Assembly (NCBI GenBank): GCA_003599855.1
Contig: QZKG01000070.1
Coordinates: 5,698 to 69,697 of the forward strand
DNA length: 64,000 bases
From: Gaiellales bacterium
Lineage (GTDB): Bacteria; Actinomycetota; Thermoleophilia; BMS3ABIN01
Direction: 5' to 3'
Made by a program: the position numbers and the translations under genes. The notes under the pieces are model-generated. The model was not told where the DNA came from and made no database searches. It saw nothing but the letters and a program-made list of their open reading frames with translations. Shown here piece after piece: positions 1-34,745 of the stretch. The number at the start of each line of letters is the position of its first letter. Position 1 is the stretch's first letter.

Positions 1-2
1 CT

Positions 3-1148
3 CAAACAGGCGGCAACACGGCATCTGACGCGGCGATCATCGAGGCGATCAGCGACGCCCGCGCCCGTGGCATGAAGGTCATGCTCAAGCCCCACGTCGA
101 TGTGCTGCGAGAGGATGTCTGGCGCGGCGAGATAACGCCTTCGGACAAGGCGGCCTGGTTCGCGAGCTACCGGCAGTTCATCAACCACTATGCCGAGTTG
201 TCACAGCGTTACGGCGTGGACGTGCTCGTGGTCGGCAGTGAGCTCGCCAGCATGAGCGGCGGTGAGAACTACGCGGAATGGCAGCGCACGGTGGCTGAGG
301 TGCGCGCCCGCTACAGCGGCAAGCTCACCTATTCAGCCAGCCTCAACGAATATGGGTACGCCTGCCTCTGGGGCTGGATGGACTATCTTGGTTTCAACTT
401 CTATTTCCCCTTGAGTGAGAGCCAGGACCCGCCGGTCGAAGAGCTCATGCGGGGCTGGTACGACTACAACGGCCGTTATTCCCCGGCTAACTGGCTGGAG
501 AGGATACGCGCCTGGCAGGCCTACTGGAACAAGCCTGTCATCTTCACCGAGATCGGCTACCGTTCGATCCTCGGCACGGCCGTCTCGCCCTGGGATTACT
601 GGACGCCTGGTGTTTACAGCGGCCAGGCCCAGGCCAGGGCCTACGAGGCAGCGTTCCGCGTGCTCGCGAACGAGCCTTACGTCATCGGCGCCTTCTGGTG
701 GAACTGGACATCCGGCGACATCTACCGCAATCCGGTCAACACGGAATATTCCATCGCCGGCAAGCCCGCTGAGGCCGTGGTGGCCGACTGGTACACGAAC
801 CGCAGCAGTTCAGCGCCGAGGGTGCAGATGGACCTGTCTGCGGTCGTATGGGAGAGCTACGAGAATTACCGCGAGCGGCGATTGAGCGTGTTCTTCAGCG
901 TGTCCAACGGGGGCGGGGATACCGCCCGTGAGGTCCAGGTCATGGTATCCGGAGCGTCGAACAACGTGTCAGCGCTGTCTCCGACAGAAACGATGCTGGG
1001 CGATATCGCCGCAGGTTCGAGTATGCTCTACAAGGTCGTCTACCTGGTGCCGCAGGGGACGTCGTCGTTCCGCGTCAATAATTATGCGTCCTGCCGGGAC
1101 GCCAGCGGCACGCGCTTCTATTTCCCTGTAACACCGCCCGCCTATTAA
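3..1148 (+). CDS. Glycoside hydrolase, clan GH-A TIM-barrel (GH5/GH113-like) with C-terminal beta-sandwich domain; 5' end lies outside the window
   Basis: The frame is open from window position 3, with no stop before M72. Contains an NEY acid/base-like motif and a nucleophile motif VIFTEIGYR plus AFWWNW, typical of clan GH-A. The C-terminal ~100 aa is a separate domain. Confidence 0.6.
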   Translation, partial: QTGGNTASDAAIIEAISDARARGMKVMLKPHVDVLREDVWRGEITPSDKAAWFASYRQFINHYAELSQRYGVDVLVVGSELASMSGGENYAEWQRTVAEVRARYSGKLTYSASLNEYGYACLWGWMDYLGFNFYFPLSESQDPPVEELMRGWYDYNGRYSPANWLERIRAWQAYWNKPVIFTEIGYRSILGTAVSPWDYWTPGVYSGQAQARAYEAAFRVLANEPYVIGAFWWNWTSGDIYRNPVNTEYSIAGKPAEAVVADWYTNRSSSAPRVQMDLSAVVWESYENYRERRLSVFFSVSNGGGDTAREVQVMVSGASNNVSALSPTETMLGDIAAGSSMLYKVVYLVPQGTSSFRVNNYASCRDASGTRFYFPVTPPAY

Positions 1149-1172: not shown

Positions 1173-2489
1173 TCAGGCGTTCTCCACGAAGATGGGCATC
1201 GAGTCGAGTTCGATGCCGTCTGTCTCCCGGCTCTGGCCCATGAAATCGGTGATGCTCAGGCGCTCTCCCAGCTCGGGCGGCAGCGGGGCGTCTGCTTCAG
1301 CCCAGAGCAGGTATACGGGCTCCCGCCCGTCGGGGAACTCATACCGGAACTGCCCTGGCGCCAAACGGGTCACCAGGGAGTAACCGTCGGTCTTGCGGAC
1401 CAGCGTCGCATAGGCGAAAAAAGCCTTCTTCTTCGTGCCTGCGGGGGTGCCGGAGGCGGCTTCCGCGCCAAGGCCGTTGTAAACCAGGCCCGTGTTGTCG
1501 AAGTAGCCGTTGGCGCTCTCCCCGTACTGATGATTCTCATAGAAGCGGTTCCAGGAGATCCTTTCCGCCCCTTCCGCAGCAGCGGTCGCAAAGCGCTTGA
1601 GGAGCTCGGCCGCCTGCTCCTCCTCCGTCTGCGGGGGATAATCCGGCGGCTGGGACGGGGCGCCGGTGTAGGTGGCGCACTCGGTGAACCAGATGGAGAT
1701 GTCGCCATCGAAGCCGTTCGCATCGAACAGGCGCCGGTAGTCGTCCATCAGGCCCGGGATGGTCACGTAGTTGCCGGCGCGGCCGTAGAGGTGCAGGTCC
1801 ACTATGTCGAAGGGCCTGGACTCGCCCGTCCTGGCCGCGATGCCGCTCATGACCTGGCTGAAATACTCCCGGTCGCGGGTGCCGCCATTGAAAGGTACGG
1901 CAGCGCCGGCGAGGGCGATGCGGCATCCCGGGCAGACATCGCGCACCGCGTGCTCCATGGCGATGAAGACTTCGACATACTCTGCAGGTGGGTACTTGTA
2001 GAGGTCGGGCTCGTTGTCCATCTGCCAGACCTCGACATCATCGTGCTCGGCCACCAGTTGCCTCACATCGGCCTCGAACTCCGCCATCTCCGCAGTTGCC
2101 ACCGGGAAGGCCGGCCGTATGCAGCCGGCGACGCTGATGCCCCGGTCATGGAGCTTCTGCATGTAATCCGGGTATTCGATGAACTCTGAGTCGATGTAAT
2201 AGAAATCGATGCGGACCCAGGAGATGCCCAGGTCGTCGATGAGGCCGAGGGTGTAGTCCTGGAACTGCTCCAGGCTTTCAAGGCCAAGCTGGGCATAGAT
2301 GAGGTCTACGTTCTCAAACGAGGTCTGTTCAAACGTGCCCGGGGCGTAGAGGCCGTAGGGAGCGGATCCGGCCGCATGATCGTCAGCCTCGTCGTTGCCG
2401 GGCTCTGCGCAGGCGACTAGCGGCGCAGTCAACAGGAGGACTGCAGCAAGACAAGCCAGATATGCTGAAGCAGCAGGTTTCATCTTCAT
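1173..2489 (-). CDS. Secreted lipoprotein glycoside hydrolase, clan GH-A (catalytic motifs NEP...TE)
   Basis: N-terminal signal peptide with lipobox LVAC. WQMDNEPD (acid/base) and IWFTECATY (nucleophile) are GH5-like catalytic motifs. 438 aa. Confidence 0.6.
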   Translation of the reverse strand: MKMKPAASAYLACLAAVLLLTAPLVACAEPGNDEADDHAAGSAPYGLYAPGTFEQTSFENVDLIYAQLGLESLEQFQDYTLGLIDDLGISWVRIDFYYIDSEFIEYPDYMQKLHDRGISVAGCIRPAFPVATAEMAEFEADVRQLVAEHDDVEVWQMDNEPDLYKYPPAEYVEVFIAMEHAVRDVCPGCRIALAGAAVPFNGGTRDREYFSQVMSGIAARTGESRPFDIVDLHLYGRAGNYVTIPGLMDDYRRLFDANGFDGDISIWFTECATYTGAPSQPPDYPPQTEEEQAAELLKRFATAAAEGAERISWNRFYENHQYGESANGYFDNTGLVYNGLGAEAASGTPAGTKKKAFFAYATLVRKTDGYSLVTRLAPGQFRYEFPDGREPVYLLWAEADAPLPPELGERLSITDFMGQSRETDGIELDSMPIFVENA

Positions 2490-2610: not shown

Positions 2611-2657
2611 CCAAAAATAATAATCTGCCTGCAGATTCATAACAGGCAGATTATTAA
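2611..2657 (-). terminator. Rho-independent terminator downstream of the small membrane-peptide gene
   Basis: Perfect 13-bp inverted repeat AATAATCTGCCTG / CAGGCAGATTATT (2619-2631 and 2643-2655) with an 11-nt loop. On the minus strand it is followed by a T-run (complement of A-run 2613-2617). Confidence 0.6.
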
Positions 2658-2678: not shown

Positions 2679-2933
2679 CTAGCTTGCCTTCGCGCGGCGA
2701 AGCAGGTAGCCTGCGCCGACCAGAGCGGAACCGATGCCGCCCAGTATCAGCAATGGGCTGCCGGTGGTGCCGCCGGTGGTGCCTCCGGTCTGCGGACCGG
2801 TACCACCACTCTCTACAACAGTCGCGAAAGAAAGCTGCGCGAAAATCATCATGACGCAGATAGCCAAAACCGTCGTTATCAAGAACAGGTAAGCCTTCTT
2901 CTTCAATTGATTCACCTCCCTCTGGATTCCCAT
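2679..2933 (-). CDS. Small Thr/Gly-rich bitopic membrane protein: N-terminal signal/TM, GGTGPQTGGTTGGTTGS linker, C-terminal TM plus RRAKAS tail
   Basis: 84-aa ORF. It has its own perfect -35 TTGACA with a TAGATT -10-like element upstream (minus strand, ~2934-2990) and the strong terminator downstream. The C-terminal hydrophobic segment followed by basic residues resembles a sorting-signal tail, but there is no LPXTG. Confidence 0.5.
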   Translation of the reverse strand: MGIQREVNQLKKKAYLFLITTVLAICVMMIFAQLSFATVVESGGTGPQTGGTTGGTTGSPLLILGGIGSALVGAGYLLRRAKAS

Positions 2934-2991
2934 CTTCTTTCAGTTAATCTACTTTAGGTACTATGCGCATGTCAATAATTCCTGCATTTAT

Positions 2992-4710
2992 TTAGGGATA
3001 AAAGCGGGAGAAGGGCCAGGAGACCCCCGCCATCCGCAAGACGGCTGAGTTCGACAGCCTGTCCGGTTCTGCCACCCTGTAGATGTAGAGTATGTCCCGG
3101 TTGTCTCCCAGGAATCCGTAGGGGATGACCATGCCGATCCGTCCCAGCCAGGATGTCCTGTTCTCCAGGTATTCCGTTACCAGCGGCCACTCCTGAGGGT
3201 AAACCACCTCCTCGACGAGCTCCAGCCTGTATGTGAAGCTCTTATTGAAGTACCAGCGGTTGTTTCTCGATTCGATGATATAATCCCCGGTTTCGATGCC
3301 TTCGCCGTCCACCATCGCCATCCTGTATCCTTCCTGCTCCATGTAATACTGGAAGCCCAGCCCCCCGAGGAACCAGACATGGCCGTCGGGTGGATAATTC
3401 TCCAGCGCCCATTCCGTCTCCACCGGGTGGACGTTGGCCCGCTGATGCTCGCCGATGGCTATGCCCAGGGAGAGCGCCAGGGTGAGCCCCGCGACGACGG
3501 CTGTCCCTGTCCGCATCCTCTTTCTGCTGTCCCCCCATAGTTTTTCCATCTCCCGGACGGCGTAGATGACCACCGGCGCCAGCAGCGGGAGGATGAACCG
3601 CGACGATGAGTATGGCAGCAGGATGCTGTTGTAAAAGAAGACCCCCAGGAACCAGAGGCCGAGGAATACGTCGTCACCGCCGCCGGCGTCGACCAGCGTG
3701 AGCGGCAGGGCGTTGAAGAACCTTCGCAGGATGTAGAGCAGGATCGCCGTCCCGGCGGCCATCAGCCAGGGGAGCAAGAGGACGTTATCCGCCGAATAGG
3801 AGCCGTTGAGGTAATTGACCGCCGCCCAGGCGCCGGTGACCACGAGGACGCCGGCGCTCGCCAGCCTGATCCATCTGCGGCCGGTGAAGACAAGCAGCGC
3901 CGCGAGGGGGAAGATGATGACGCCGCCCACCAGCGTGATGGCGCCCCTTATCCTGACCAGGATGGAGTCAAGGTCCATCGGCTGCACAACCGTGTTGTAG
4001 GTGAACCGCGGCGGCGCGCCATAGTAGGCGTAGTGCGCCGAGGCAAAAGCGAGGAACACGACAACAGGTATGGACAGTGCGATGATCGTCTTGGGGCTGA
4101 TCCTCCTGGACAGCAGCAGGTAAACGAAAAGGAGAGGGAGGAGCGACAGGTCCTGGTAATAGGTGAGCACGCCCAGGGAAAGGCATAGCGCTCCCGCCAG
4201 CAGGTATGCCAGCCTGTCATCGTCGATGCCCTTGAGATAAAAGGCTGTCGCTAGCAGCCAGAATGTCGTCCCCGGCACGTCGATCATGATCAGGTGATTC
4301 GCCACCAGATAAGCCGGCGCCAGGATGAAGAGCAGTGTGGCGATGAACGCGTTCACGCCGAAGCGCCTTGCGATAAAATACATGGCCAGCACGGCAAGCA
4401 GCGGGAACAGCAGCATTTCCAGGTGAAGCGCGGTCTCGGCGAGGCTTCCGGTTATTGCCAGCCACATGCTCAGGTACAGCGAATGCAGTCTCGGGTGAGT
4501 GTCGTGGTAGCTGTTTTCCGGATAGTTCACTCCGAAATAGTCGTAATCCGGTATGTGATGCCAGAGCGGATGCTCGAGGCCCTGCTTGGCGAAGTGGACC
4601 CACTGGTGGGCGTCATGATGGACGGCCTGGCCGATGAACGGCAGCGTCACCGCCAGCAGCACCCCGATCAGTATCACCAGCTGGAAACGCTTGAAAAAAG
4701 CGGACTTCAT
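2992..4710 (-). CDS. GT-C fold membrane glycosyltransferase, PMT/ArnT-like (GT39/GT83-like), paralog 1
   Basis: ~10 TM helices. First-loop motif DAHQWVHFAKQG resembles the PMT loop-1 DE(V)HFGKFA motif, and HPRLHSLYL resembles the HPPLGKLL motif of PMT/ArnT. C-terminal soluble domain present. The start was moved to MKSAFF (ATG 4708-4710), which overlaps the upstream gene's TGA as ATGA. Confidence 0.55.
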   Translation of the reverse strand: MKSAFFKRFQLVILIGVLLAVTLPFIGQAVHHDAHQWVHFAKQGLEHPLWHHIPDYDYFGVNYPENSYHDTHPRLHSLYLSMWLAITGSLAETALHLEMLLFPLLAVLAMYFIARRFGVNAFIATLLFILAPAYLVANHLIMIDVPGTTFWLLATAFYLKGIDDDRLAYLLAGALCLSLGVLTYYQDLSLLPLLFVYLLLSRRISPKTIIALSIPVVVFLAFASAHYAYYGAPPRFTYNTVVQPMDLDSILVRIRGAITLVGGVIIFPLAALLVFTGRRWIRLASAGVLVVTGAWAAVNYLNGSYSADNVLLLPWLMAAGTAILLYILRRFFNALPLTLVDAGGGDDVFLGLWFLGVFFYNSILLPYSSSRFILPLLAPVVIYAVREMEKLWGDSRKRMRTGTAVVAGLTLALSLGIAIGEHQRANVHPVETEWALENYPPDGHVWFLGGLGFQYYMEQEGYRMAMVDGEGIETGDYIIESRNNRWYFNKSFTYRLELVEEVVYPQEWPLVTEYLENRTSWLGRIGMVIPYGFLGDNRDILYIYRVAEPDRLSNSAVLRMAGVSWPFSRFYP

Positions 4711-6494
4711 CGCTCTTCCAGATCCTCGATCCAAGTGATGCCTACCTCCCTGTACAGCTCGTATTGCGACTCATCCAGCGGGTTGGGCTCATCGTCGATG
4801 CGCCATGTCCTTACTGTATCAGCCCGCTCTCCCAGGGTATCGATCCTGAAGGGCAGGAACACCGAATTCCACCAGCAGGTGTCCGAGCCGGCGCACGGCA
4901 TGAAAAAGATCTGATCGTTGTAAAGAACCAGGGTCTGGTCGCGCCTAAGTCTCTGCATCACCGAGGGATACGGCACCCAGGCGCCGTCCTTGACTGAATA
5001 AGCCACGTAGTCACCGGGTCGCGGTTCCTCTAACGGAAGGGATCTTGTCGTTTGCGCGTACAGCTCGTTTTCCACGCTCGGCACAAGCCTGAAGCCGGCC
5101 CGCTCCAGGTAGTAGCCGAACCCGAAGGTGCCATTATACCAGGCGCCGCCGGTGCCGTCGTAATTCTCGATCGCCCATTCTGCGGCGACCTTGCCGTTTC
5201 TGGCGGCGGTGTATGTCGTCAGGCTGAGCAACGTTGAAAAGACCAGCGTCAGGGCCAGGGCGCTCCCGGCCAGGGAGGGTCTCAGCCATCGGGTTCGGAT
5301 ATGTGCGCGCCATATCGTCAGCAGGCCGAGGATCGCGGCAGGGACGATGGCCAGCAGGTAGCGCGGCGCCGGGTAGGGGAGCAGGATAGTCGTATATGCC
5401 AGAACGCTGAAGAACCAGACGGCCAGGAACAGCGCATCCCTGCCCGCGCGTGAATTCCGGTTTTCCCTGCTGGAAAGCGCCGCCGCGGACCTCTCTATCA
5501 TCAGGTACGTGATCGTGATGCCCACGGGTAGCATGACCGACAGCAGCAACATGTCCGAGAGACCGTAGTCGCCCAGCACGTACTTGACCACCGACCATGA
5601 CCAGGTGATCATCGAAGATGACACGAAAACGAGTATGCTCGTCCAGCGCGTGAGAAACCCCGCCACCGCAACCAGGGGGAATAACAGAGTTCCCCCCAGC
5701 ACGGTCAGGTTGGCGCGCAGGAAAGCAAGCGCGGAAGTCGGTTGCATGGTGTTCAGCCGGGACCTGTAGGAGAGGCGTGGCAACTGGCCATATGCGGCCA
5801 CGACCGCCAGCAGGTAGGCTCCAAAAAAGATCCCGGCTGCTGCGATGGGGACGAGATTCCTGATGCGGAACTGTCGATGGATGACCAGGTAAGCCAGCGC
5901 CAGGGGCAGCACCACCAGCCCCTGGAAGAACGTCTGGCTGGCGAGGATCATCAGCAACGCCGACAGGCTCAAAAGCCATCTGCCCCGCTGCCTTTCCACG
6001 GCGGCGATGAACACAGCCAGGGCGGCGATCGAGAGAGACACGCCCGGCACGTCCACCATCTCCGTATGCGAGCTCACCATCAGCATGGGGCTGGCCAGGA
6101 AGAACAGCGCGGCCGCGAGGCCGCTGACCCGGAAGCGGCGGCCAAGGAAGTACATGCCCACTGCGCCGATGAAGGGGAAGATCGCGAGCGAGAGGTGGAG
6201 CGGCACCTCCGATGGCTCGCCGGTGGCCCGGATGACGAGGCTCAAATACAGCGGCAAAAATTTTGGATGGGTTTCGAGATAGCTGTCAAAAAAGATGCCC
6301 CTGTTGCTGAAATGGCTGGGAAGGTCCTGCGAGAAGGGCTGCTCTATCTGCCTCTCGGCGAAGGCGATGGTCTCGGGCCCGTCAATAGAGAAAGGCTGGG
6401 CGGCAAAGGGAACGGTTATCACAAGGGTGGCCAGGGCGATGACAGCCAGCGCAAGAGCAGTCTGATGCTTTTGAGATATTCTCATAGGAGTCAC
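4707..6494 (-). CDS. GT-C fold membrane glycosyltransferase, PMT/ArnT-like, paralog 2
   Basis: 595 aa with the same architecture and conserved blocks (HPKFLPLYLSL, MVDVPG versus MIDVPG) as the downstream paralog. Stop/start overlap with paralog 1 suggests translational coupling. Confidence 0.55.
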   Translation of the reverse strand: MTPMRISQKHQTALALAVIALATLVITVPFAAQPFSIDGPETIAFAERQIEQPFSQDLPSHFSNRGIFFDSYLETHPKFLPLYLSLVIRATGEPSEVPLHLSLAIFPFIGAVGMYFLGRRFRVSGLAAALFFLASPMLMVSSHTEMVDVPGVSLSIAALAVFIAAVERQRGRWLLSLSALLMILASQTFFQGLVVLPLALAYLVIHRQFRIRNLVPIAAAGIFFGAYLLAVVAAYGQLPRLSYRSRLNTMQPTSALAFLRANLTVLGGTLLFPLVAVAGFLTRWTSILVFVSSSMITWSWSVVKYVLGDYGLSDMLLLSVMLPVGITITYLMIERSAAALSSRENRNSRAGRDALFLAVWFFSVLAYTTILLPYPAPRYLLAIVPAAILGLLTIWRAHIRTRWLRPSLAGSALALTLVFSTLLSLTTYTAARNGKVAAEWAIENYDGTGGAWYNGTFGFGYYLERAGFRLVPSVENELYAQTTRSLPLEEPRPGDYVAYSVKDGAWVPYPSVMQRLRRDQTLVLYNDQIFFMPCAGSDTCWWNSVFLPFRIDTLGERADTVRTWRIDDEPNPLDESQYELYREVGITWIEDLEER

Positions 6495-6703: not shown

Positions 6704-8146
6704 GTGAAAAACGACAACCACCAGGGAACGAGCGGCTTCTGGGCGCGGCGCGCCCGGCGCGCTGTTTTGATAACGGCGGAGGCGACCATCGCCGCTGTGA
6801 TGGCGTTTCTCACCATGATCCTGGTGGCGCCCACCGAGGTGCAGGTCGGCCCCGTGCTCATCGGGTTCGAGGCGAGGCCGTCCTGGGGCGGCCACACCGT
6901 GGTTGAACTGCCGCCGGCGGGATCGCTGCATGCCCAGACCCATCGCGCCCCGGTGGAGCTGGTATTCACGCTCAAGGAGATAGCGGTGGACCAGGCGGCT
7001 GACCTCACGCGGGAGGGCTCCGCCGCCAGGGAGGAGCTGCGCATGTGGCGTGAGCCCGTCACGGGCGCGGCGCGCATGCTGTTGCTCAGGACGGCGGTTG
7101 CCGCGGCGCTGGCGGCGGGGTCGATAGCATGGCTGGCCAGGCGCCGCTGGGCATGGGTAGCAGCGGGAATGGCCCTGGGCCTGACTGTCGCGGCAGGGTT
7201 GTCACTGCTTGTCTGGTACTCCTACGACCTGGATGCCTTCTCCCAGCCGGAGTACACCGGCAACCTGGCGCGGGCGCCGGAGATCGTCGGCTTCTCCCAC
7301 GAGTTCCTGGCGAACCTTGAGACCTATTCCGACCAGGTGCCGCGCATCGCCGAGAACCTCTACCGGACCGTGAACGAGCTGCAACGGCTCCCGGACGGCA
7401 TGCCGCTGGAGGATTCCATCAGGGTGCTGCACGTCTCAGACCTCCACAACAGTGAAGCCGGGGCCGCGCTGCTGCAGCGCGTGACAGGGCTTTACGACAT
7501 CGACTTCGTGATAGACACAGGCGACATCAGCGAGCTCGGCACCCCCTTTGAGCTGGGTTACCCCGGAACATTCCTGCCACTCGAAGTTCCTTACCTGTGG
7601 ATTGCGGGGAATCATGACAGCGGCCTGGTGAGCGAGACTATGGCGGAGATAGATGGGGTCACGGTGCTCGACGGTGACTTCAGGACTGTCGAGGGGCTGA
7701 CGGTGGGGGGCTTCCCCGACCCTTCCGCCGCTTCGCTCATACCCAGGGTGGCCACCGGAAGCGAGCTGGAAGAAGACAGCCGGATGATACTGGCGGCGGT
7801 CAGGGAGGCTAAGCCTGCCCCCGACATCATCGCTGTCCATGATCCCGGGCAGGCCCGCAGGCTTACCGGGGTCGTCCCGGTGGTGCTGAGCGGCCATGTC
7901 CACCGGGATTCCATCGATGTGACGGACGGCACGGTGCTGATCAACGCCGGCAGCACGGGCGGCGGCGGCCTGCGGGGCTTCGAGGCGGAGGGGGAGACCC
8001 CCAGCTCCCTGCAGGTGCTGTATTTCAACCGCTCCACTCATAAGATCATGGCGGCCGACACCATAGTGATCTACGGTTTCAGCCAGGAGTACACGGTTGC
8101 CCGGCAGATCTTCAGCGGCACTGATGCACCGGTCCCCGTCGCATGA
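6704..8146 (+). CDS. Membrane-anchored calcineurin-like metallophosphoesterase
   Basis: N-terminal TM segments followed by a metallophosphoesterase domain with motifs VLHVSDLHN, DTGDISELG and IAGNHD. Confidence 0.65.
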   Translation: MKNDNHQGTSGFWARRARRAVLITAEATIAAVMAFLTMILVAPTEVQVGPVLIGFEARPSWGGHTVVELPPAGSLHAQTHRAPVELVFTLKEIAVDQAADLTREGSAAREELRMWREPVTGAARMLLLRTAVAAALAAGSIAWLARRRWAWVAAGMALGLTVAAGLSLLVWYSYDLDAFSQPEYTGNLARAPEIVGFSHEFLANLETYSDQVPRIAENLYRTVNELQRLPDGMPLEDSIRVLHVSDLHNSEAGAALLQRVTGLYDIDFVIDTGDISELGTPFELGYPGTFLPLEVPYLWIAGNHDSGLVSETMAEIDGVTVLDGDFRTVEGLTVGGFPDPSAASLIPRVATGSELEEDSRMILAAVREAKPAPDIIAVHDPGQARRLTGVVPVVLSGHVHRDSIDVTDGTVLINAGSTGGGGLRGFEAEGETPSSLQVLYFNRSTHKIMAADTIVIYGFSQEYTVARQIFSGTDAPVPVA

Positions 8147-8268: not shown

Positions 8269-9711
8269 ATGATGATGGAGCTTACTGACAGTCAGCTGGC
8301 GCTGATGGCGGGCCGGGGTGATGCGGACGCCTGCCGGCGGCTGTTCGAGCGTTACCAGCATCCGGTCTACAATTTCGTGTACCGGATGGTGGACAACGCC
8401 GAGGACGCTTCCGACATCGTCCAGGACGCCTTCATCAAGGTATATAACGTCCTCGGGCGGCAGGAAGTCCGGAACTTCTCCGCTTACCTCTACCGCACCG
8501 CCAGGAACCTCGCCTACGATGAGATGAGGCGCCGGTCCCGCTTCGCCGATGTCGACCAGGAACTGCTGGCGCCGGAGGACCCGAACATCTACGCCGACCC
8601 CCAGCGGGCCCTGCTCCTCGCCGAGCAGATGCAGAAGGTACGGCAGGCTGCGGGCGGTCTCAGCGAGAACCAGCGGGCGGCGCTCGTCCTGCGGGAGCTG
8701 GAGGGGTTGGACTACGACCAGATGGCGGAGGTCATGGAATCCAACCGCAACGCCGTCGGGGCACTGCTGTCGCGGGCGCGCCTGAAGTTCAGAGAGGAGC
8801 TCAGGATGGCTCAGGTAAGAACAGACATGGCACCGGAAGAATGCGAGGAGGCCATCGCCCTGCTTTCTCCCTACATTGATGGCGAGCTTGCCGGTGAGGA
8901 CATCGCTTACGTCGAGCGCCACCTGGAGCAGTGCGGCTTCTGCGCGGCTGCGTTTGAAGAGATGCGCGAGGCTTCGCGTTCCTTCAGGGTGCTGATACCG
9001 GTCATACCGCCGGCCGACATGGCCGAGGCCTTCACGCGCAGGCTCCGTGAGGCGGGCGACGCTGCTGCGCAAACTGCCGGCGGGCAGGCAACGGACACCG
9101 CCCCCGCGGGCAGCCGTTCCCTTGCGTCCAGGTTCATGGCCAGCAGGATCACCTGGGCCGTTACGGCTCTCGTGGCAGCCGCCGGCCTGGGTTTATTCCT
9201 TATCGCGGGCGAGGTGGGGCGCGATCGGGACGTGGCTGCGACCCGGACGGGGGAGGGGGGAGCGGCGGGTCAGCGGGATGACACAAACGACGGTCTGCGG
9301 GAGATGCCCGGCGTCGGACCGGCCCACGGTGACGGCATCGACCTCCAGGGCGCCCAGGATGGCCAACCCGGGGCGGACGGCCGGGCAGAGCCAGGCCAGG
9401 ATGATCCGGGTGAGACGGCGGCAGGCATGGTCGTATCCGGGTACGCCACCCCAAACCCGGTAAAACAGTACTCGCGGGTGACGGTCACCGTGGAAGTGAC
9501 CGGCAGCCCCGGTTCGGTCTCGGTGGCCATCGGCGACGCCATGACCGTGAAGCTGGCCAGGCAGTACGCCACCCCGGACGGCGAAGTCTGGAGCTGGGCC
9601 GGGAATGCACAGGCGCCCGGCTATTACGTCATGACCGCCTCGGCCGCCTATCCCGGCGCTACCGCAGAGGCGATGATCGGCGCCCTGGAAGTCGTCTACA
9701 CCCTCTACTGA
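8269..9711 (+). CDS. ECF sigma factor fused to ZAS-type (zf-HC2) anti-sigma domain, one TM helix and an extracytoplasmic C-terminal domain (ECF52-like architecture)
   Basis: Sigma-70 region 2 (DIVQDAFIKVY...YLYRTARNLAYD) and region 4 (LSENQRAALVLRELEGLDYDQMAEVM...LSRARLKFREEL) continue without a stop into an anti-sigma zinc-finger (LSPYIDGELAGEDIAYVERHLEQCGFC). This is followed by a TM helix (ITWAVTALVAAAGLGLFLIAG) and a ~170-aa C-terminal domain. One uninterrupted 480-codon ORF. Confidence 0.7.
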   Translation: MMMELTDSQLALMAGRGDADACRRLFERYQHPVYNFVYRMVDNAEDASDIVQDAFIKVYNVLGRQEVRNFSAYLYRTARNLAYDEMRRRSRFADVDQELLAPEDPNIYADPQRALLLAEQMQKVRQAAGGLSENQRAALVLRELEGLDYDQMAEVMESNRNAVGALLSRARLKFREELRMAQVRTDMAPEECEEAIALLSPYIDGELAGEDIAYVERHLEQCGFCAAAFEEMREASRSFRVLIPVIPPADMAEAFTRRLREAGDAAAQTAGGQATDTAPAGSRSLASRFMASRITWAVTALVAAAGLGLFLIAGEVGRDRDVAATRTGEGGAAGQRDDTNDGLREMPGVGPAHGDGIDLQGAQDGQPGADGRAEPGQDDPGETAAGMVVSGYATPNPVKQYSRVTVTVEVTGSPGSVSVAIGDAMTVKLARQYATPDGEVWSWAGNAQAPGYYVMTASAAYPGATAEAMIGALEVVYTLY

Positions 9712-9840
9712 CAAGCCCCTCCGGCTCGCAGCGGTTATCAAAAGCAGCCGCGCTTTCCTGCCCCTGCGTAATTCCTGAGCCTTTTCTGCGTCATAGAAGT
9801 GGCGACCAGATCAGAGCCGCGTCAGGGAAAGGGAGGACGG

Positions 9841-10584
9841 ATGCCATCCGCCGATTACACCAGGTACAGAAGCAGCAGGTTCGTCCGCCGCAGGCCGTTG
9901 ATGAGTCCAGGGCAACATGCGCCAGGCTGCGGCGGGGCCGGAAGCGAGCGTTTTTCCTGGGGGTGGTTCGTGAGAAAAGCGCTGGCCTTGGTGATCCTGG
10001 CCGGCATCGCCCTGTTCCTCTATGCCTGCTGGACCTTCGGCTACGGCTATTACCGGGCGAAAGTCGGACAGGGCGAACTGCGCTCGCTGTTCTCGTTCAC
10101 CGGAGACGGGTCGGTGGACGCCGGTTACGTGCGCGGCGAGGCGGAAGCCATAGCGGCCGGTCTGGCTTACCTCGATCCTGTCGGGGAGATCTCGATACCG
10201 TCCATCAATTGCGACTGGATGATCGTCGAAGGGTCCGACGACGGAGCGCTGTCCCGCGGTCCAGGGCATATCCAGGAGACCCAGCTGCCGGGGATGGGCG
10301 GCAACTTCGCCGTTGCGGGCGACCGCGTGCTCTACGGCGCCCCCTTCCTCGACCTGGATGACGTCGTGGTCGGCGACGAGGTGACCGTACGGATGCCATA
10401 TGCCACCTTCGTGTACCGCGTCAATGAGACCTTCATCGTCACCCCTGACGACACGAGTGTCCTCAGGCCGGTGGGCTACGATGCCATCACCCTGCTCACC
10501 TGCGACCCGCCCTGGGACGTCAAGCAGCGGATCGTGGTGAGGGGAGAGCTCACAGATATCCTCCCGGCCGGGACGGGCGCCTGA
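9841..10584 (+). CDS. Sortase (transpeptidase), TLxTC catalytic motif; class E-like
   Basis: N-terminal TM anchor, catalytic motif ITLLTCDPPW, conserved His region (GPGHIQETQLPG) and a downstream Arg. The start was placed at the ATG preceded by RBS GGGAGG (MPSADY...). Confidence 0.7.
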   Translation: MPSADYTRYRSSRFVRRRPLMSPGQHAPGCGGAGSERFSWGWFVRKALALVILAGIALFLYACWTFGYGYYRAKVGQGELRSLFSFTGDGSVDAGYVRGEAEAIAAGLAYLDPVGEISIPSINCDWMIVEGSDDGALSRGPGHIQETQLPGMGGNFAVAGDRVLYGAPFLDLDDVVVGDEVTVRMPYATFVYRVNETFIVTPDDTSVLRPVGYDAITLLTCDPPWDVKQRIVVRGELTDILPAGTGA

Positions 10585-13606: not shown

Positions 13607-13966
13607 TCAGAGCGACAGTTCGACGCTGTTGGTCCAGTCGCCGTGCAGGTTGCAGCGCTCATACGCCCTCAACCTGCCGGGACCATCGACCCTGACGGAA
13701 AAGGTAACCTTGGGGTCGGTGTAGCCCCAGGTGAGGTCACACCTGCTCAGGAACCTGTCATCCAGGTAGAGGTCGATGAACTCGATGTGGTGTTCCGCTT
13801 CGTTGGGATGGGCCATCTGCTCGCCGACCCAAACCGTCACCTCGAAGAACTCGCCCGCCCTCGGCGTGCCGCCGATATGGATCATCGGCACGTGCTTCTT
13901 CTCGAGGTCAGTCATGTTGGCGAAATCCTTCACCTCGTTGATGCTGGTGGCTTGCTCGATACTCAT
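13607..13966 (-). CDS. sor: Superoxide reductase (desulfoferrodoxin/neelaredoxin family, 1Fe-SOR type)
   Basis: KKHVPMIHIGG...AHPNEAEHHIEFIDLYLDD matches the SOR ferrous-iron-binding domain (KHVP...H..E.H.I..I.L). The start was placed at the second ATG (MSIEQ), which has RBS GGAGGAG 4 nt upstream. Confidence 0.65.
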   Translation of the reverse strand: MSIEQATSINEVKDFANMTDLEKKHVPMIHIGGTPRAGEFFEVTVWVGEQMAHPNEAEHHIEFIDLYLDDRFLSRCDLTWGYTDPKVTFSVRVDGPGRLRAYERCNLHGDWTNSVELSL

Positions 13967-14645: not shown

Positions 14646-15263
14646 TCAGTGGTGCGGGCCGGCCACCTGGATCATGGCCTCGGCTGTCAGTATCAGCGTC
14701 GCCCAGATGGCGTCCACGGGGAAGTGCTCCGGGGCGGTGTCGTCGATCAGCATCTGGCAGCGGGCCGGGAACTCCAGGTCGCCGACCCAGAGGATGATAG
14801 TGACCGGCATCCGCGGCAGCGTGGGGACCCGCACCGCGGCATCACCCTGCTCAACCTTCTCGGCCTGCAGTTCCTTCCCCGCGCGCAGGAAGTTGTCAGG
14901 GTTTGAGCCGAAATGGTGGGCCAGGACTTCGAGGGGCAGCTCGTGCGGCCCCTTGAAGAACGCCTGTCCTCCCGGAACGGATTGGGGCGCGATCAGCCTG
15001 CCGCTGGGGATGACGTCGCGGCATGACGCCACGTAGAGCGGGGCGATCAGGCTGAAGTGGGTGGAATCACCGGCATGGAAGTGGTGGTGCGGGCCGATCT
15101 CGCGGACCTGCCGCTGCTGGATGTCGACCACGAAGGGAGCCTTGAACACCTCCAGCACGAAGGCGTCCTCTTCCTCCCAGTATTCCAGGTCGCAGCGTTC
15201 GGCGATCTCCTGCGGGTCCATCGCCTCCAGCTTCTCCCATGCTGTCTTTTCACCGGCAAGCAT
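14646..15263 (-). CDS. Hypothetical protein (205 aa), His-rich termini
   Basis: Uninterrupted ORF with coding-like composition. No motif I can assign with confidence. Confidence 0.35.
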   Translation of the reverse strand: MLAGEKTAWEKLEAMDPQEIAERCDLEYWEEEDAFVLEVFKAPFVVDIQQRQVREIGPHHHFHAGDSTHFSLIAPLYVASCRDVIPSGRLIAPQSVPGGQAFFKGPHELPLEVLAHHFGSNPDNFLRAGKELQAEKVEQGDAAVRVPTLPRMPVTIILWVGDLEFPARCQMLIDDTAPEHFPVDAIWATLILTAEAMIQVAGPHH

Positions 15264-29533: not shown

Positions 29534-30016
29534 ATGAGAATGAAGCATGTATCTTTACTGACAGTCGTTTTCCTGGTGGCCGCTGCTGTCGCCGCCGGAA
29601 CGGTCAGCGCATGCCTGCTTGCGAATCTGACGCTGACCCCCAACAGCGGTCCTGCCGGCACAATGGTGACAGCTGAAAGCACCGGCGGTACCCCTGACAC
29701 AGCCTACAATCTTTACTGGGATGGGGCCTTGATCGCTTCCGGAACAAGCGATTCAGGAGGCAATGGCACCGCTTCCTTCATGGTGCCCGCGGACGCGTCG
29801 GTGGGCGGACACCTGGTCGAGTACGAGGAGGGCCAGACAGTGATGTGTTCGGCAGGATTCACCGTGACGGCTGCCACGGCGGACACGGGCGTCCAGCCGG
29901 ACGCTTACGTCTCTGTATCGAGCCTGCCGGCTACCGGGCTGGTGCTGCTGGTACCTGCCGCTGGCCTGGCTCTTGCCGGTGCGGGCCTGTGGTACCGGCG
30001 CAGGCGCGATCGATAG
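29534..30016 (+). CDS. Small LPXTG-anchored surface protein (sortase substrate), paralog A
   Basis: Signal peptide, ~110-aa Thr/Gly/Ser-rich beta-domain, C-terminal LPATG + hydrophobic stretch + RRRRDR. Shares motif LTLTPNSGPAGTMV with paralog B (YTLTPDSGPAGSTV). RBS GAAGGAGG. Confidence 0.65.
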   Translation: MRMKHVSLLTVVFLVAAAVAAGTVSACLLANLTLTPNSGPAGTMVTAESTGGTPDTAYNLYWDGALIASGTSDSGGNGTASFMVPADASVGGHLVEYEEGQTVMCSAGFTVTAATADTGVQPDAYVSVSSLPATGLVLLVPAAGLALAGAGLWYRRRRDR

Positions 30017-34008: not shown

Positions 34009-34160
34009 ATCGGCCAAGGAACAACATCTGATGCCTACCCCGGGAGCTGATGCCGGGACGCCGTTTGTGAGAATGCGCTTTCATTCCAGGGACGGCAGAC
34101 GTATGATGCGTTTGTGCTCAAGTAGAGCCGATATCATGCATCTTGAAAGAGGAGGGAGAG

Positions 34161-34745
34161 ATGGCTGAAAGCGGTTGGCTTAGAGTGGGATGGACGACCC
34201 TTTCGTTGCTGCTGTCCGCCGTCATCGGGCTGGTCCTTCCGGCAGCGGCTTTTGCCCAGACGCCGCCGCCCGGAGAATGCAACGGCGAGATGTCGCTCCA
34301 CGGCACCTACACGCTCACGCCTGACTCCGGCCCGGCTGGCAGTACCGTGGCATTGAACGGCTCATTCCCCTTGTTCACCGGCATCCAGGATGCCACTCAG
34401 ATCATGGGGCCGCCGCTGGAGGCCTGGTGGTTCACGGGGCCGGGCGACGCCACTTTCCTGGGCGAGCTGCCCACCGACTTCAATGAGGTGGACACGGCCT
34501 ATGTCAGCGGCAACATCACGATACCGGCAGGCGCGGCCCCGGGCCCCCATAACGTGGCGCTGGACATCGCCGGCGGCACCGACCCCGATTGCGTAGTCTT
34601 CACCGTGACCGAGCCGGTTCAGGCGGATGCATATCCTCAGACTGGTGCGAACCGGCTGCCCGATACAGGATACGCCCCATTATTGCCGCTGGCGGGAGCA
34701 GCCGCGGCGGGTGCGTTGCTGACGGCCTGGAGGCGTCGTTCGTAG
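34161..34745 (+). CDS. Small LPXTG-anchored surface protein (sortase substrate), paralog B
   Basis: Signal peptide (MAESGWLRVGWTTLSLLLSAVIGLVLPAAAFA), beta-rich domain, C-terminal LPDTG + hydrophobic stretch + WRRRS. Strong RBS GGAGGGAGAG upstream. Start placed at ATG 34161. Confidence 0.65.
   Translation: MAESGWLRVGWTTLSLLLSAVIGLVLPAAAFAQTPPPGECNGEMSLHGTYTLTPDSGPAGSTVALNGSFPLFTGIQDATQIMGPPLEAWWFTGPGDATFLGELPTDFNEVDTAYVSGNITIPAGAAPGPHNVALDIAGGTDPDCVVFTVTEPVQADAYPQTGANRLPDTGYAPLLPLAGAAAAGALLTAWRRRS

Follow-up and report, generated by a model that had tools for sequence, protein, structure and literature searches.

Two GT-C glycosyltransferase genes and a small membrane-anchored peptide gene as a candidate O-glycosylation module in a Gaiellales bacterium

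In the Pgf operon of Streptococcus mutans (cnm-pgfS-pgfM1-pgfE-pgfM2), two GT-C glycosyltransferase paralogs act in sequence, outside the cytoplasm and on Ser/Thr-rich disordered regions; a 4-epimerase and a GT-A polyprenyl-phosphate-sugar synthase, which supply the donor, are encoded with them, as are Ser/Thr-rich substrates, and the substrate gene in the cluster has terminator and promoter signals of its own (PMC5856776, PMC12041528). The related GtrB/PgtC2 system of S. pyogenes and S. pneumoniae adds glucose to membrane proteins in their disordered, Ser/Thr-rich regions (PMC5856776, PMC12041528). Protein O-mannosyltransferases (PMTs) use a polyprenyl- or dolichyl-phosphate-sugar donor and Ser/Thr-rich acceptors, and form paralog dimers (PMC7759382, PMC12705809). 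Here we describe a three-gene unit in a stretch of 64,000 nucleotides (“the window”) from a Gaiellales bacterium (assembly GCA_003599855.1, contig QZKG01000070.1, positions 5,698-69,697): two tandem GT-C genes, GT-C A and GT-C B, followed by a gene for a small membrane-anchored peptide. The explanation that we favor, tentatively and with a confidence a little short of even, is that the locus serves as a dedicated module for extracytoplasmic O-glycosylation and encodes the substrate next to its enzymes; the peptide is probably the sugar acceptor of the GT-C pair. No publication on a module of a GT-C pair with an anchored peptide was found in the literature. The window was compared with relatives' contigs (loci designated L001, L002 and so on), gathered by gene-context look-ups and a scan of a genome collection; peptide genes were located in these by a six-frame motif scan, and synteny was assessed with a tblastn matrix. 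The closest relatives of the window enzymes are in Thermoleophilia metagenome assemblies.

Among systems studied by experiment, Pgf is the nearest analogue. The window module shares with it a GT-C pair and a co-encoded Ser/Thr-rich gene with its own promoter and terminator, and in relatives of the window, genes for a synthase-like GT2 and for a GalE-like epimerase adjoin the pair. The differences are several: the window enzymes match PMT_2 (PF13231) and not YfhO, the family of Pgf-type enzymes; the host is actinobacterial, while that of Pgf belongs to the Firmicutes; and the putative substrate has ~45-50 aa, no folded domain and a conserved helix as its anchor, where that of Pgf is a large LPXTG adhesin. 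No GT2 synthase gene was found beside the window pair in the 13 kb annotated or, by tblastn with the GT2 of L007, in the whole window, and no epimerase was found beside the pair in the window. All five Pgf-type components were seen together in no single locus; the pair and the Ser/Thr-rich gene are found in nearly all.

The GT-C pair and the peptide gene are a conserved unit. The window, L001-L004, L006, L009-L013, L015 and L016 all have GT-C A, GT-C B and the peptide gene side by side, in this order and on one strand, and peptide and enzymes remain adjacent at ~30% enzyme identity to the window (L015 group). Compared with L012/L015, the window has the three-gene unit turned around with respect to the metallophosphoesterase-sigma-sortase block; in L115 the peptide gene is divergent and upstream of GT-C A, and in L082 it lies between two GT-C genes. 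As a reverse test, metagenome contigs were scanned with a hand-made degenerate DNA pattern for the C-terminal helix of the peptide. The 97 matches include nine family members (L020, L021, L026, L038, L041, L063, L072, L082, L098), 8 of them counted as additions, as well as PEP-CTERM tails (L076, L105), which were picked up because their glycine-rich helix and RR are similar. Every peptide homolog with sufficient flank, the reverse-scan members included, adjoins a GT-C gene of the window family; no family member away from the GT-C enzymes was found in the profile search or the DNA-pattern scan.

The peptide gene itself, by its codon pattern, is real, conserved and under purifying selection: synonymous exceed nonsynonymous codon differences in 5/5 close pairs (14:7, 25:16, 9:2, 17:9 and 12:4), and ~30 loci carry a homolog, so that the small open reading frame (ORF) is not the unconserved one that a first-pass annotation of this DNA had allowed for. 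A non-coding RNA in place of a small ORF is ruled out by this coding-type pattern and by an Rfam search of the small-gene region, which returned no family match. The gene had been read as encoding 84 aa from an ATG at 2933. The gene, its signal/transmembrane segment and its RRAKAS tail all stand, but its start does not: that ATG has no ribosome-binding site, and the true start is most likely the TTG at 2906-2904, for a product of 75 aa, because a Shine-Dalgarno sequence (GGGAGGTG or GGAGGTG) ahead of a TTG or GTG start is kept in every homologous locus. The start is TTG behind a near-perfect Shine-Dalgarno sequence in the window, L001, L004, L006, L009, L010, L012 and L013, so that a weak start codon is, oddly, combined with a strong ribosome-binding site. 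An exact database look-up of the 84-aa product found no record; the peptide matches the entry “hypothetical protein C4534_10455 [Gaiellales bacterium]” at 100% identity, and neither Pfam nor NCBIfam assigns it to a family.

The gene also has its own transcription signals. The TTGACA of the promoter, recognized already in the first pass, begins 15 bases past the stop codon of GT-C B. A single site of this type is not significant by itself (4 in the region vs 1.5 expected from shuffles); six diverged lineages (L001, L009, L010, L004/L011, L006, L012) have the pattern TTGACA/TTGACT-N17/18-TAnnnT in this position. The terminator is likewise present, with a 15-bp hairpin of -24.8 kcal/mol (z = -7.0 vs shuffles); a homologous hairpin is kept in the closer loci L001, L009 and L010.

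The ~30 peptide homologs all come from Thermoleophilia/Gaiellales metagenome assemblies; a profile search with the peptide alignment found 19 database proteins, all small, to which the locus-derived members are additional. Several of the 19 are encoded on contigs equal in length to ones with a GT-C B homolog. The window peptide has a signal peptide ending in AQLSFA, with TV after the cut, an ectodomain TVVESGGTGPQTGGTTGGT, TGSP, a glycine-rich transmembrane helix LLILGGIGSALVGAGYLL and the RRAKAS tail. Canonical members open with Lys/Arg-rich residues and a hydrophobic core, after which comes an AxA cleavage site that usually precedes (T/S)V. A motif resembling G(P/A)QTG is also usual; its Q48 is invariant in the nine-member alignment A2, not in all members. 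A low-complexity stretch of variable length then leads to an invariant T-G plus [AGS][PE], and the C-terminus runs from this TG[AGS][PE] through the glycine-rich helix (G..L.G.G.L, with G68, L71, G73, G75 and L77 invariant) to a basic tail. The ectodomain is disordered and averages 46% Ser+Thr and 30% Gly; in canonical small members it has no Cys, Trp or Phe, with Tyr occasional. Mean pairwise identity is 0.57 for motif, helix and tail vs ~0.35 for the ectodomain, the automatic split into regions being approximate. The stalk has grown by tandem repeats in several members: GGSTGAAQTG occurs 3x in L026 (11840-12154) and 2x in L098 (2193-2480), and TGGGGA 5x in L082 (1456-1824). One homolog differs in architecture: L114 (7857-8282; 141 aa) retains the signal peptide, a GTGPQTG stretch and the C-terminus and has in its stalk a folded-looking, Cys-bracketed, Asp-rich insert, DRNGDGVMDAWDVNNDGIVDRWD, with weak EF-hand matches only. 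Soil contigs L028, L033, L034, L068, L070, L074 and L088, from other organisms, encode Pro/Ala-rich proteins of 300-440 aa whose helix and tail, LLIAVLGVGLVGAGYLLRRR, closely resemble the peptide C-terminus; no GT-C genes were detected on these contigs, and the likeness may reflect chance or a common type of anchor.

The enzyme genes are, as first described, two translationally coupled paralogs: the ATG of GT-C B at 4710 overlaps the TGA of GT-C A as ATGA, which makes the downstream enzyme 572 aa long, and the two proteins are 29% identical across their full length (E 3e-76). Both exceed the gathering score of Pfam PMT_2 (26.1 bits), GT-C B with 48.1 bits (2e-12) and GT-C A with 37.6 bits (3.2e-9); the divergent orthologs in L015 likewise match PMT_2. 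The profile searches suggested in the first pass thus gave a match at this level and at no other: PMT_2 is the sole glycosyltransferase family reported for the two proteins in a Pfam scan at E ≤ 1, neither matches PMT (PF02366), PMT_4TMC, MIR or YfhO in Pfam, and neither matches any NCBIfam model, that for ArnT included. A word-indexed search with GT-C B found 31 homologs, and an exhaustive HMMER search 2243 cluster representatives at E ≤ 1e-3, 145 of them at E ≤ 1e-30; these numbers place GT-C B in a PMT_2 subfamily that is large and uncharacterised. Residue D33 of GT-C B, located in its first outer loop, is invariant in 26 homologs, and D33, H96, H139, Q186, Y197 and R371 do not vary among 22 sequences, A-type and B-type, that represent the two paralog lineages. 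Because this loop-1 Asp and the other residues are kept in both lineages, both paralogs are probably catalytic. In L006 (6221-8004), GT-C A was called as two genes, of 343 and 169 aa, with a gap between them, beside an intact GT-C B and peptide gene; a frameshift, a pseudogene or an assembly error are possible.

A confident AlphaFold model of GT-C B (predicted local distance difference test score, pLDDT, 87; predicted TM-score, pTM, 0.89) has no beta-trefoil insert. With it, Foldseek gave 23 PDB matches at E ≤ 1e-3, 23/23 of them GT-C enzymes, headed by ArnT (5ezm; E 2e-7, TM-score 0.51-0.54) and followed by STT3/AglB/PglB, ALG9/12, Pmt1/2/4, AftB and DPY19; a sequence-profile search of the enzyme alignment against the PDB gave nothing meaningful. 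The model thus has a generic GT-C fold, and a match of this kind is without information on acceptor class. The coordinates of the module and its neighbors are collected in Table 1.

Table 1. The three-gene unit, its signals and the adjoining genes (positions and strands are those of the window)
Feature	Position	Strand	Remarks
GT-C paralog A	4707..6494	-	595 aa; 11 transmembrane segments (scan) and a C-terminal extracytoplasmic domain, predicted
GT-C paralog B	2992..4710	-	572 aa from ATG at 4710; ORF spans 2992-4734; 9 transmembrane segments (scan)
Small-peptide gene	2679..2906	-	75 aa from TTG 2906; annotated as 84 aa, ATG 2933 (ORF 2679-2933)
Promoter	2946..2975	-	-35 TTGACA (2975-2970), 18-nt spacer, -10 TAGATT (2951-2946)
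Shine-Dalgarno sequence GGGAGGTG	2913..2920	-	6 nt before TTG start
Intrinsic terminator	2613..2656	-	15-bp hairpin 2656-2618, then TTTTT 2617-2613
Metallophosphoesterase	6704..8146	+	Pfam Metallophos/Metallophos_2; 3 transmembrane segments (scan)
Lipoprotein	1173..2489	-	438 aa, lipobox LVAC; Glyco_hydro_cc E 0.006, below threshold
GH113 glycoside hydrolase	1..1148	+	Pfam GH113 1e-39; N-terminus cut by window edge
ECF (extracytoplasmic function) sigma + zf-HC2 anti-sigma fusion	8269..9711	+	480 aa, one transmembrane segment, extracytoplasmic tail
Class-E-like sortase	9799..10584	+	Below NCBIfam class cutoffs

The enzymes had been called PMT-like, a description that holds at the level of the broad PMT_2/GT-C clan and not for specific PMT membership. 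With PMTs (GT39; fungal Pmt1-Pmt2, actinobacterial Pmt with Ppm1) they share the GT-C fold and an acidic residue in the first outer loop; their donor would by homology be a polyprenyl-phosphate-sugar, and PMT structures are among their fold matches, weakly: Pmt structures cover about half of the GT-C B model, at TM-scores of 0.29-0.43. Unlike PMTs, they lack the Pfam PMT and PMT_4TMC domains and the luminal MIR (beta-trefoil) domain of eukaryotic members, and their loop-1 motif is D-A, D-G or D-D. In PMTs this motif is D-E. The absent PMT, PMT_4TMC and MIR matches and the weak Pmt structure matches rule out a canonical PMT identity. ArnT (GT83), the undecaprenyl-phosphate-L-Ara4N:lipid A transferase, is the top structural match, with a similar size and the same succession of transmembrane segments and C-terminal periplasmic domain, and some homologs of the window enzymes are automatically annotated as “ArnT family”; unlike a true ArnT, GT-C B is only 14% identical to it and matches no NCBIfam ArnT model, and no arn pathway genes are present in the module neighborhood. 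Lipid A synthesis is not known from actinobacteria.

The donor, the acceptor, the mode of docking and the product, as we infer them from the observed gene anatomy, family assignment, fold, conservation and linkage, would be as follows. A sigma-70-type promoter of its own would drive strong transcription of the small gene, to which read-through from the enzyme genes would add, and translation would begin at the TTG behind the near-perfect ribosome-binding site. The product would be exported by Sec and cleaved after the AxA site, leaving a mature peptide of ~45-50 aa held in the membrane by the glycine-rich helix near its C-terminus. The basic tail would lie in the cytoplasm, and a short, flexible stalk rich in Ser, Thr and Gly would face outward. 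GT-C A and GT-C B, each with its outer-loop Asp, would transfer sugar from a polyprenyl-phosphate carrier to Ser/Thr of the stalk, acting either sequentially (initiation and extension, like PgfM1/PgfM2) or as a heterodimer (like Pmt1-Pmt2). TG[AGS][PE] and the helix would probably dock the peptide, placing the stalk at membrane-proximal active sites; the invariant Thr could, as an alternative to being part of a sorting signal, be an acceptor site at a fixed distance from the membrane. The result would be an abundant membrane-anchored, possibly wall-linked, mini-mucin coating the cell. Its trimming or remodelling may fall to GH113, the glycosidase-like lipoprotein and the metallophosphoesterase, which would face outward.

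Several features are consistent with an acceptor role of the peptide. Its linkage to the pair, kept through rearrangement and enzyme divergence, speaks for the module, as do the loop-1 Asp retained by both enzymes and the precedent of bacterial GT-C enzymes shown by experiment to O-glycosylate Ser/Thr-rich disordered regions outside the cytoplasm. The first-pass annotation had seen a likely acceptor in its Thr-rich linker, and the Ser/Thr/Gly-rich, disordered, repeat-expanding ectodomain does fit a glycosylation target; the folded-looking stalk insert of L114 resembles surface proteins, and the conserved promoter, ribosome-binding site and terminator look like signals for strong expression. 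Genes of apparent donor supply (GT2, nucleotidyltransferase, epimerase) adjoin the pair in relatives. In L007, L008 and L115, two genes converge on GT-C B, one encoding a sugar-1-phosphate nucleotidyltransferase and the other a GT2 of 240 aa; the best matches of this GT2 are AglJ, dolichyl-phosphate-hexose transferase and ArnC, all of polyprenyl-phosphate-hexose-synthase type, which would fit a polyprenyl-phosphate-sugar donor without naming the sugar. The matches of both genes are to generic hexose or sugar-1-phosphate types, and a mannose-specific reading is thereby ruled out. A GalE-like epimerase is adjacent in L004, L006, L012, L015 and L016.

If the peptide is the acceptor, it would be the smallest known natural substrate of a bacterial GT-C protein glycosyltransferase, complete with membrane tether. 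The module would then be a minimal system for the choice of Ser/Thr-rich disordered acceptors by GT-C enzymes, with a possible glycoengineering tag; it would extend Pgf/PgtC2-type O-glycosylation from the YfhO enzymes of Firmicutes to actinobacterial PMT_2 enzymes and would give a first view of surface chemistry in uncultured Thermoleophilia/Gaiellales.

Other observations weigh against this explanation. Glycosylation of the peptide is itself something that we infer; the top fold match, ArnT, acts on a lipid acceptor, and TM-scores of ~0.5 do not separate GT-C enzymes acting on proteins, glycans and lipids. The conservation of motif, helix and tail would equally fit a partner subunit or a sorting signal. 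The recurrent GT4, GH113 and glycosidase-like lipoprotein genes are typical of polysaccharide loci, and a 28% identical relative of the enzymes (L117, the contig of P0072) lies in a polysaccharide-type cluster with neither pair nor peptide; there, the gene for the 696-aa PMT_2 relative follows two radical-SAM genes of B12-binding type, a GT2 and a GT1 and precedes an ABC2 membrane protein, a different setting for the wider enzyme family. Finally, L007 and L008 have the pair, with no peptide gene found within the ~12 kb available, and the surrounding region is largely syntenic across a narrow lineage, so that some of the adjacency could be inherited.

The main rival to the O-glycosylation module, to which we give a minor but real chance, would make the peptide a single-pass accessory or regulatory subunit in a complex with GT-C A and GT-C B: its helix would pack on the enzymes, its stalk would serve as a spacer, and the sugars would in truth go to a polysaccharide, a lipoglycan or other proteins. 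Ost4 and PIG-X are small subunits of this kind. The distribution of conservation, which is highest in motif, helix and tail with five invariant helix residues, is what such a partner would show, and the polysaccharide-type neighbors, the ArnT fold match and the cluster of the distant L117 relative all agree with a different acceptor. A spacer, however, needs neither a conserved richness in Ser/Thr nor growth by tandem repeats, the folded insert of L114 is at odds with one, and a stoichiometric subunit requires no promoter and terminator of its own beyond operon read-through.

A variant of the acceptor hypothesis, to which we attach little likelihood, makes the peptide an encoded primer or core on whose Ser/Thr stalk the GT-C pair builds a glycan polymer rather than adding single sugars, a mini-proteoglycan. 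The product would be a peptide-anchored analogue of actinobacterial lipoglycans, and TG[AGS][PE] could hand it over to the cell wall, with GH113, the glycosidase-like lipoprotein and the ecto-phosphoesterase setting the length of the polymer or releasing it.

We also consider it unlikely that the peptide is a degenerate sortase substrate, cut at the invariant T-G before the helix so that a fragment of ~20 aa, glycosylated or not, is attached to peptidoglycan; this would be compatible with the O-glycosylation module. The general layout is that of a sorting-signal protein: an N-terminal signal peptide, a tripartite C-terminus in which the TG lies 2 residues before a hydrophobic segment with a basic tail, and a sortase in the genome, class-E-like and 7 kb away in the window, near the module also in L010, L012 and L015. 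At the family position xxxTG[AGS][PE], L114 reads RLPITGAP, with a canonical LPITG exactly at the TG, and xPxTG occurs in L013 (TPSTG), L115 (TPATG) and L041 (TPGTG). The window peptide, for its part, reads GGTTG followed by SP, with neither LPXTG nor LAXTG: it lacks the Leu, and its key positions hold neither Pro nor Ala, whereas the substrates of the lineage are strict LPXTG: proteins adjoining the sortase end in LPNTG, helix and basic tail in L015 (14856-15410), L010 (4129-4689) and L012 (16691-17167), and the window, which unlike these three has no LPNTG gene beside its sortase, encodes canonical substrates with LPATG (29534-30016, +) and LPDTG (34143-34745, +). Since the signal of the lineage is canonical and the peptide reads GGTTGSP, the window peptide does not carry it, and a canonical sortase substrate is ruled out; a degenerate signal, in view of the invariant T-G, the xPxTG variants and LPITG, is possible but unlikely. 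No sortase is near the module in L001, L004, L006 and L013, and the peptide helix is conserved in sequence. Helices of sorting signals usually are not. The “sorted-protein” system proposed in the first pass is weakened accordingly.

More broadly, LPXTG/sortase and PEP-CTERM/exosortase proteins resemble the peptide in combining a signal peptide, a low-complexity Ser/Thr/Gly region, a motif, a helix and a basic tail, and in being encoded in glycan-related loci; unlike them, the window peptide has neither a PEP motif nor LPXTG, and no assortment of lineage proteins was found to bear its C-terminal domain as a tag. NCBIfam gave no PEP-CTERM match for the peptide, and none of the genes in the loci was noted as exosortase-like. 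A general PEP-CTERM-like tag is ruled out, the domain having been found only in the small peptide family.

It is improbable that the adjacency is no more than inherited synteny in a narrow lineage, with the peptide an unrelated small membrane protein: every locus does come from one Thermoleophilia/Gaiellales lineage, genes as unrelated in function as those for SpoIIE phosphatase, desulfoferrodoxin and DUF3786 are syntenic too, and L007 and L008 have the pair with no peptide gene found, but the peptide stays by a GT-C gene where the flanks rearrange (the window inversion, L115, L082), the linkage reaches down to ~30% enzyme identity, and no family member was found apart from the enzymes. The “glycopeptide” of the first pass, taken as a natural product, does not fit a Sec-exported, membrane-anchored protein; a secreted glycopeptide of RiPP (ribosomally synthesized and post-translationally modified peptide) or glycocin type is ruled out by the Sec signal, the membrane anchor and the absence of Cys, of a cytoplasmic glycosyltransferase and of a protease/exporter set.

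Among the neighboring genes, the metallophosphoesterase is a frequent fourth member of the module, directly 3' of the peptide gene in L006, L012, L015, L016, L020, L026, L038, L041, L072, L082 and L098. Inversion of the three-gene unit has left it divergent from GT-C A in the window. The first pass had it as a membrane protein, in agreement with its Pfam match and 3 transmembrane segments, and by the positive-inside rule its catalytic domain would face outward. The two glycosidases described as flanking the module fared differently: GH113 is identified by its Pfam match, with orthologs near the GT-C pair in L001, L004, L007, L008, L015, L016, L063, L072 and L115, and the lipoprotein has just a weak, sub-threshold match. 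The latter has an 81% identical ortholog at the same position in L001, and a 439-aa gene stands beside GH113 in L115.

On one side of the unit, the recurrent neighbors are genes for glutamine amidotransferase-like and GyrI-like proteins, GT4, GH113, a small lipoprotein and a GalE/TviC-like epimerase; on the other are those for the metallophosphoesterase, the sigma/anti-sigma fusion, the sortase, SpoIIE phosphatase, desulfoferrodoxin and DUF3786. The sigma/anti-sigma gene and the sortase gene occur as a pair near the three-gene unit in L010, L012 and L015; the ECF sigma/zf-HC2 fusion (~500 aa) is found in these loci and in L114 and L116, usually beside a sortase. An 84-aa gene with no Pfam match lies a few kb from the module in L001 (786-1040), L004 (16897-17151) and L006 (16737-16991). 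Desulfoferrodoxin and DUF3786 are syntenic with the module (in the window at 13610-13966 and 14646-15263, both on the minus strand), as is rubrerythrin in L001 (2058-2552), which hints at an anaerobic or microaerophilic host.

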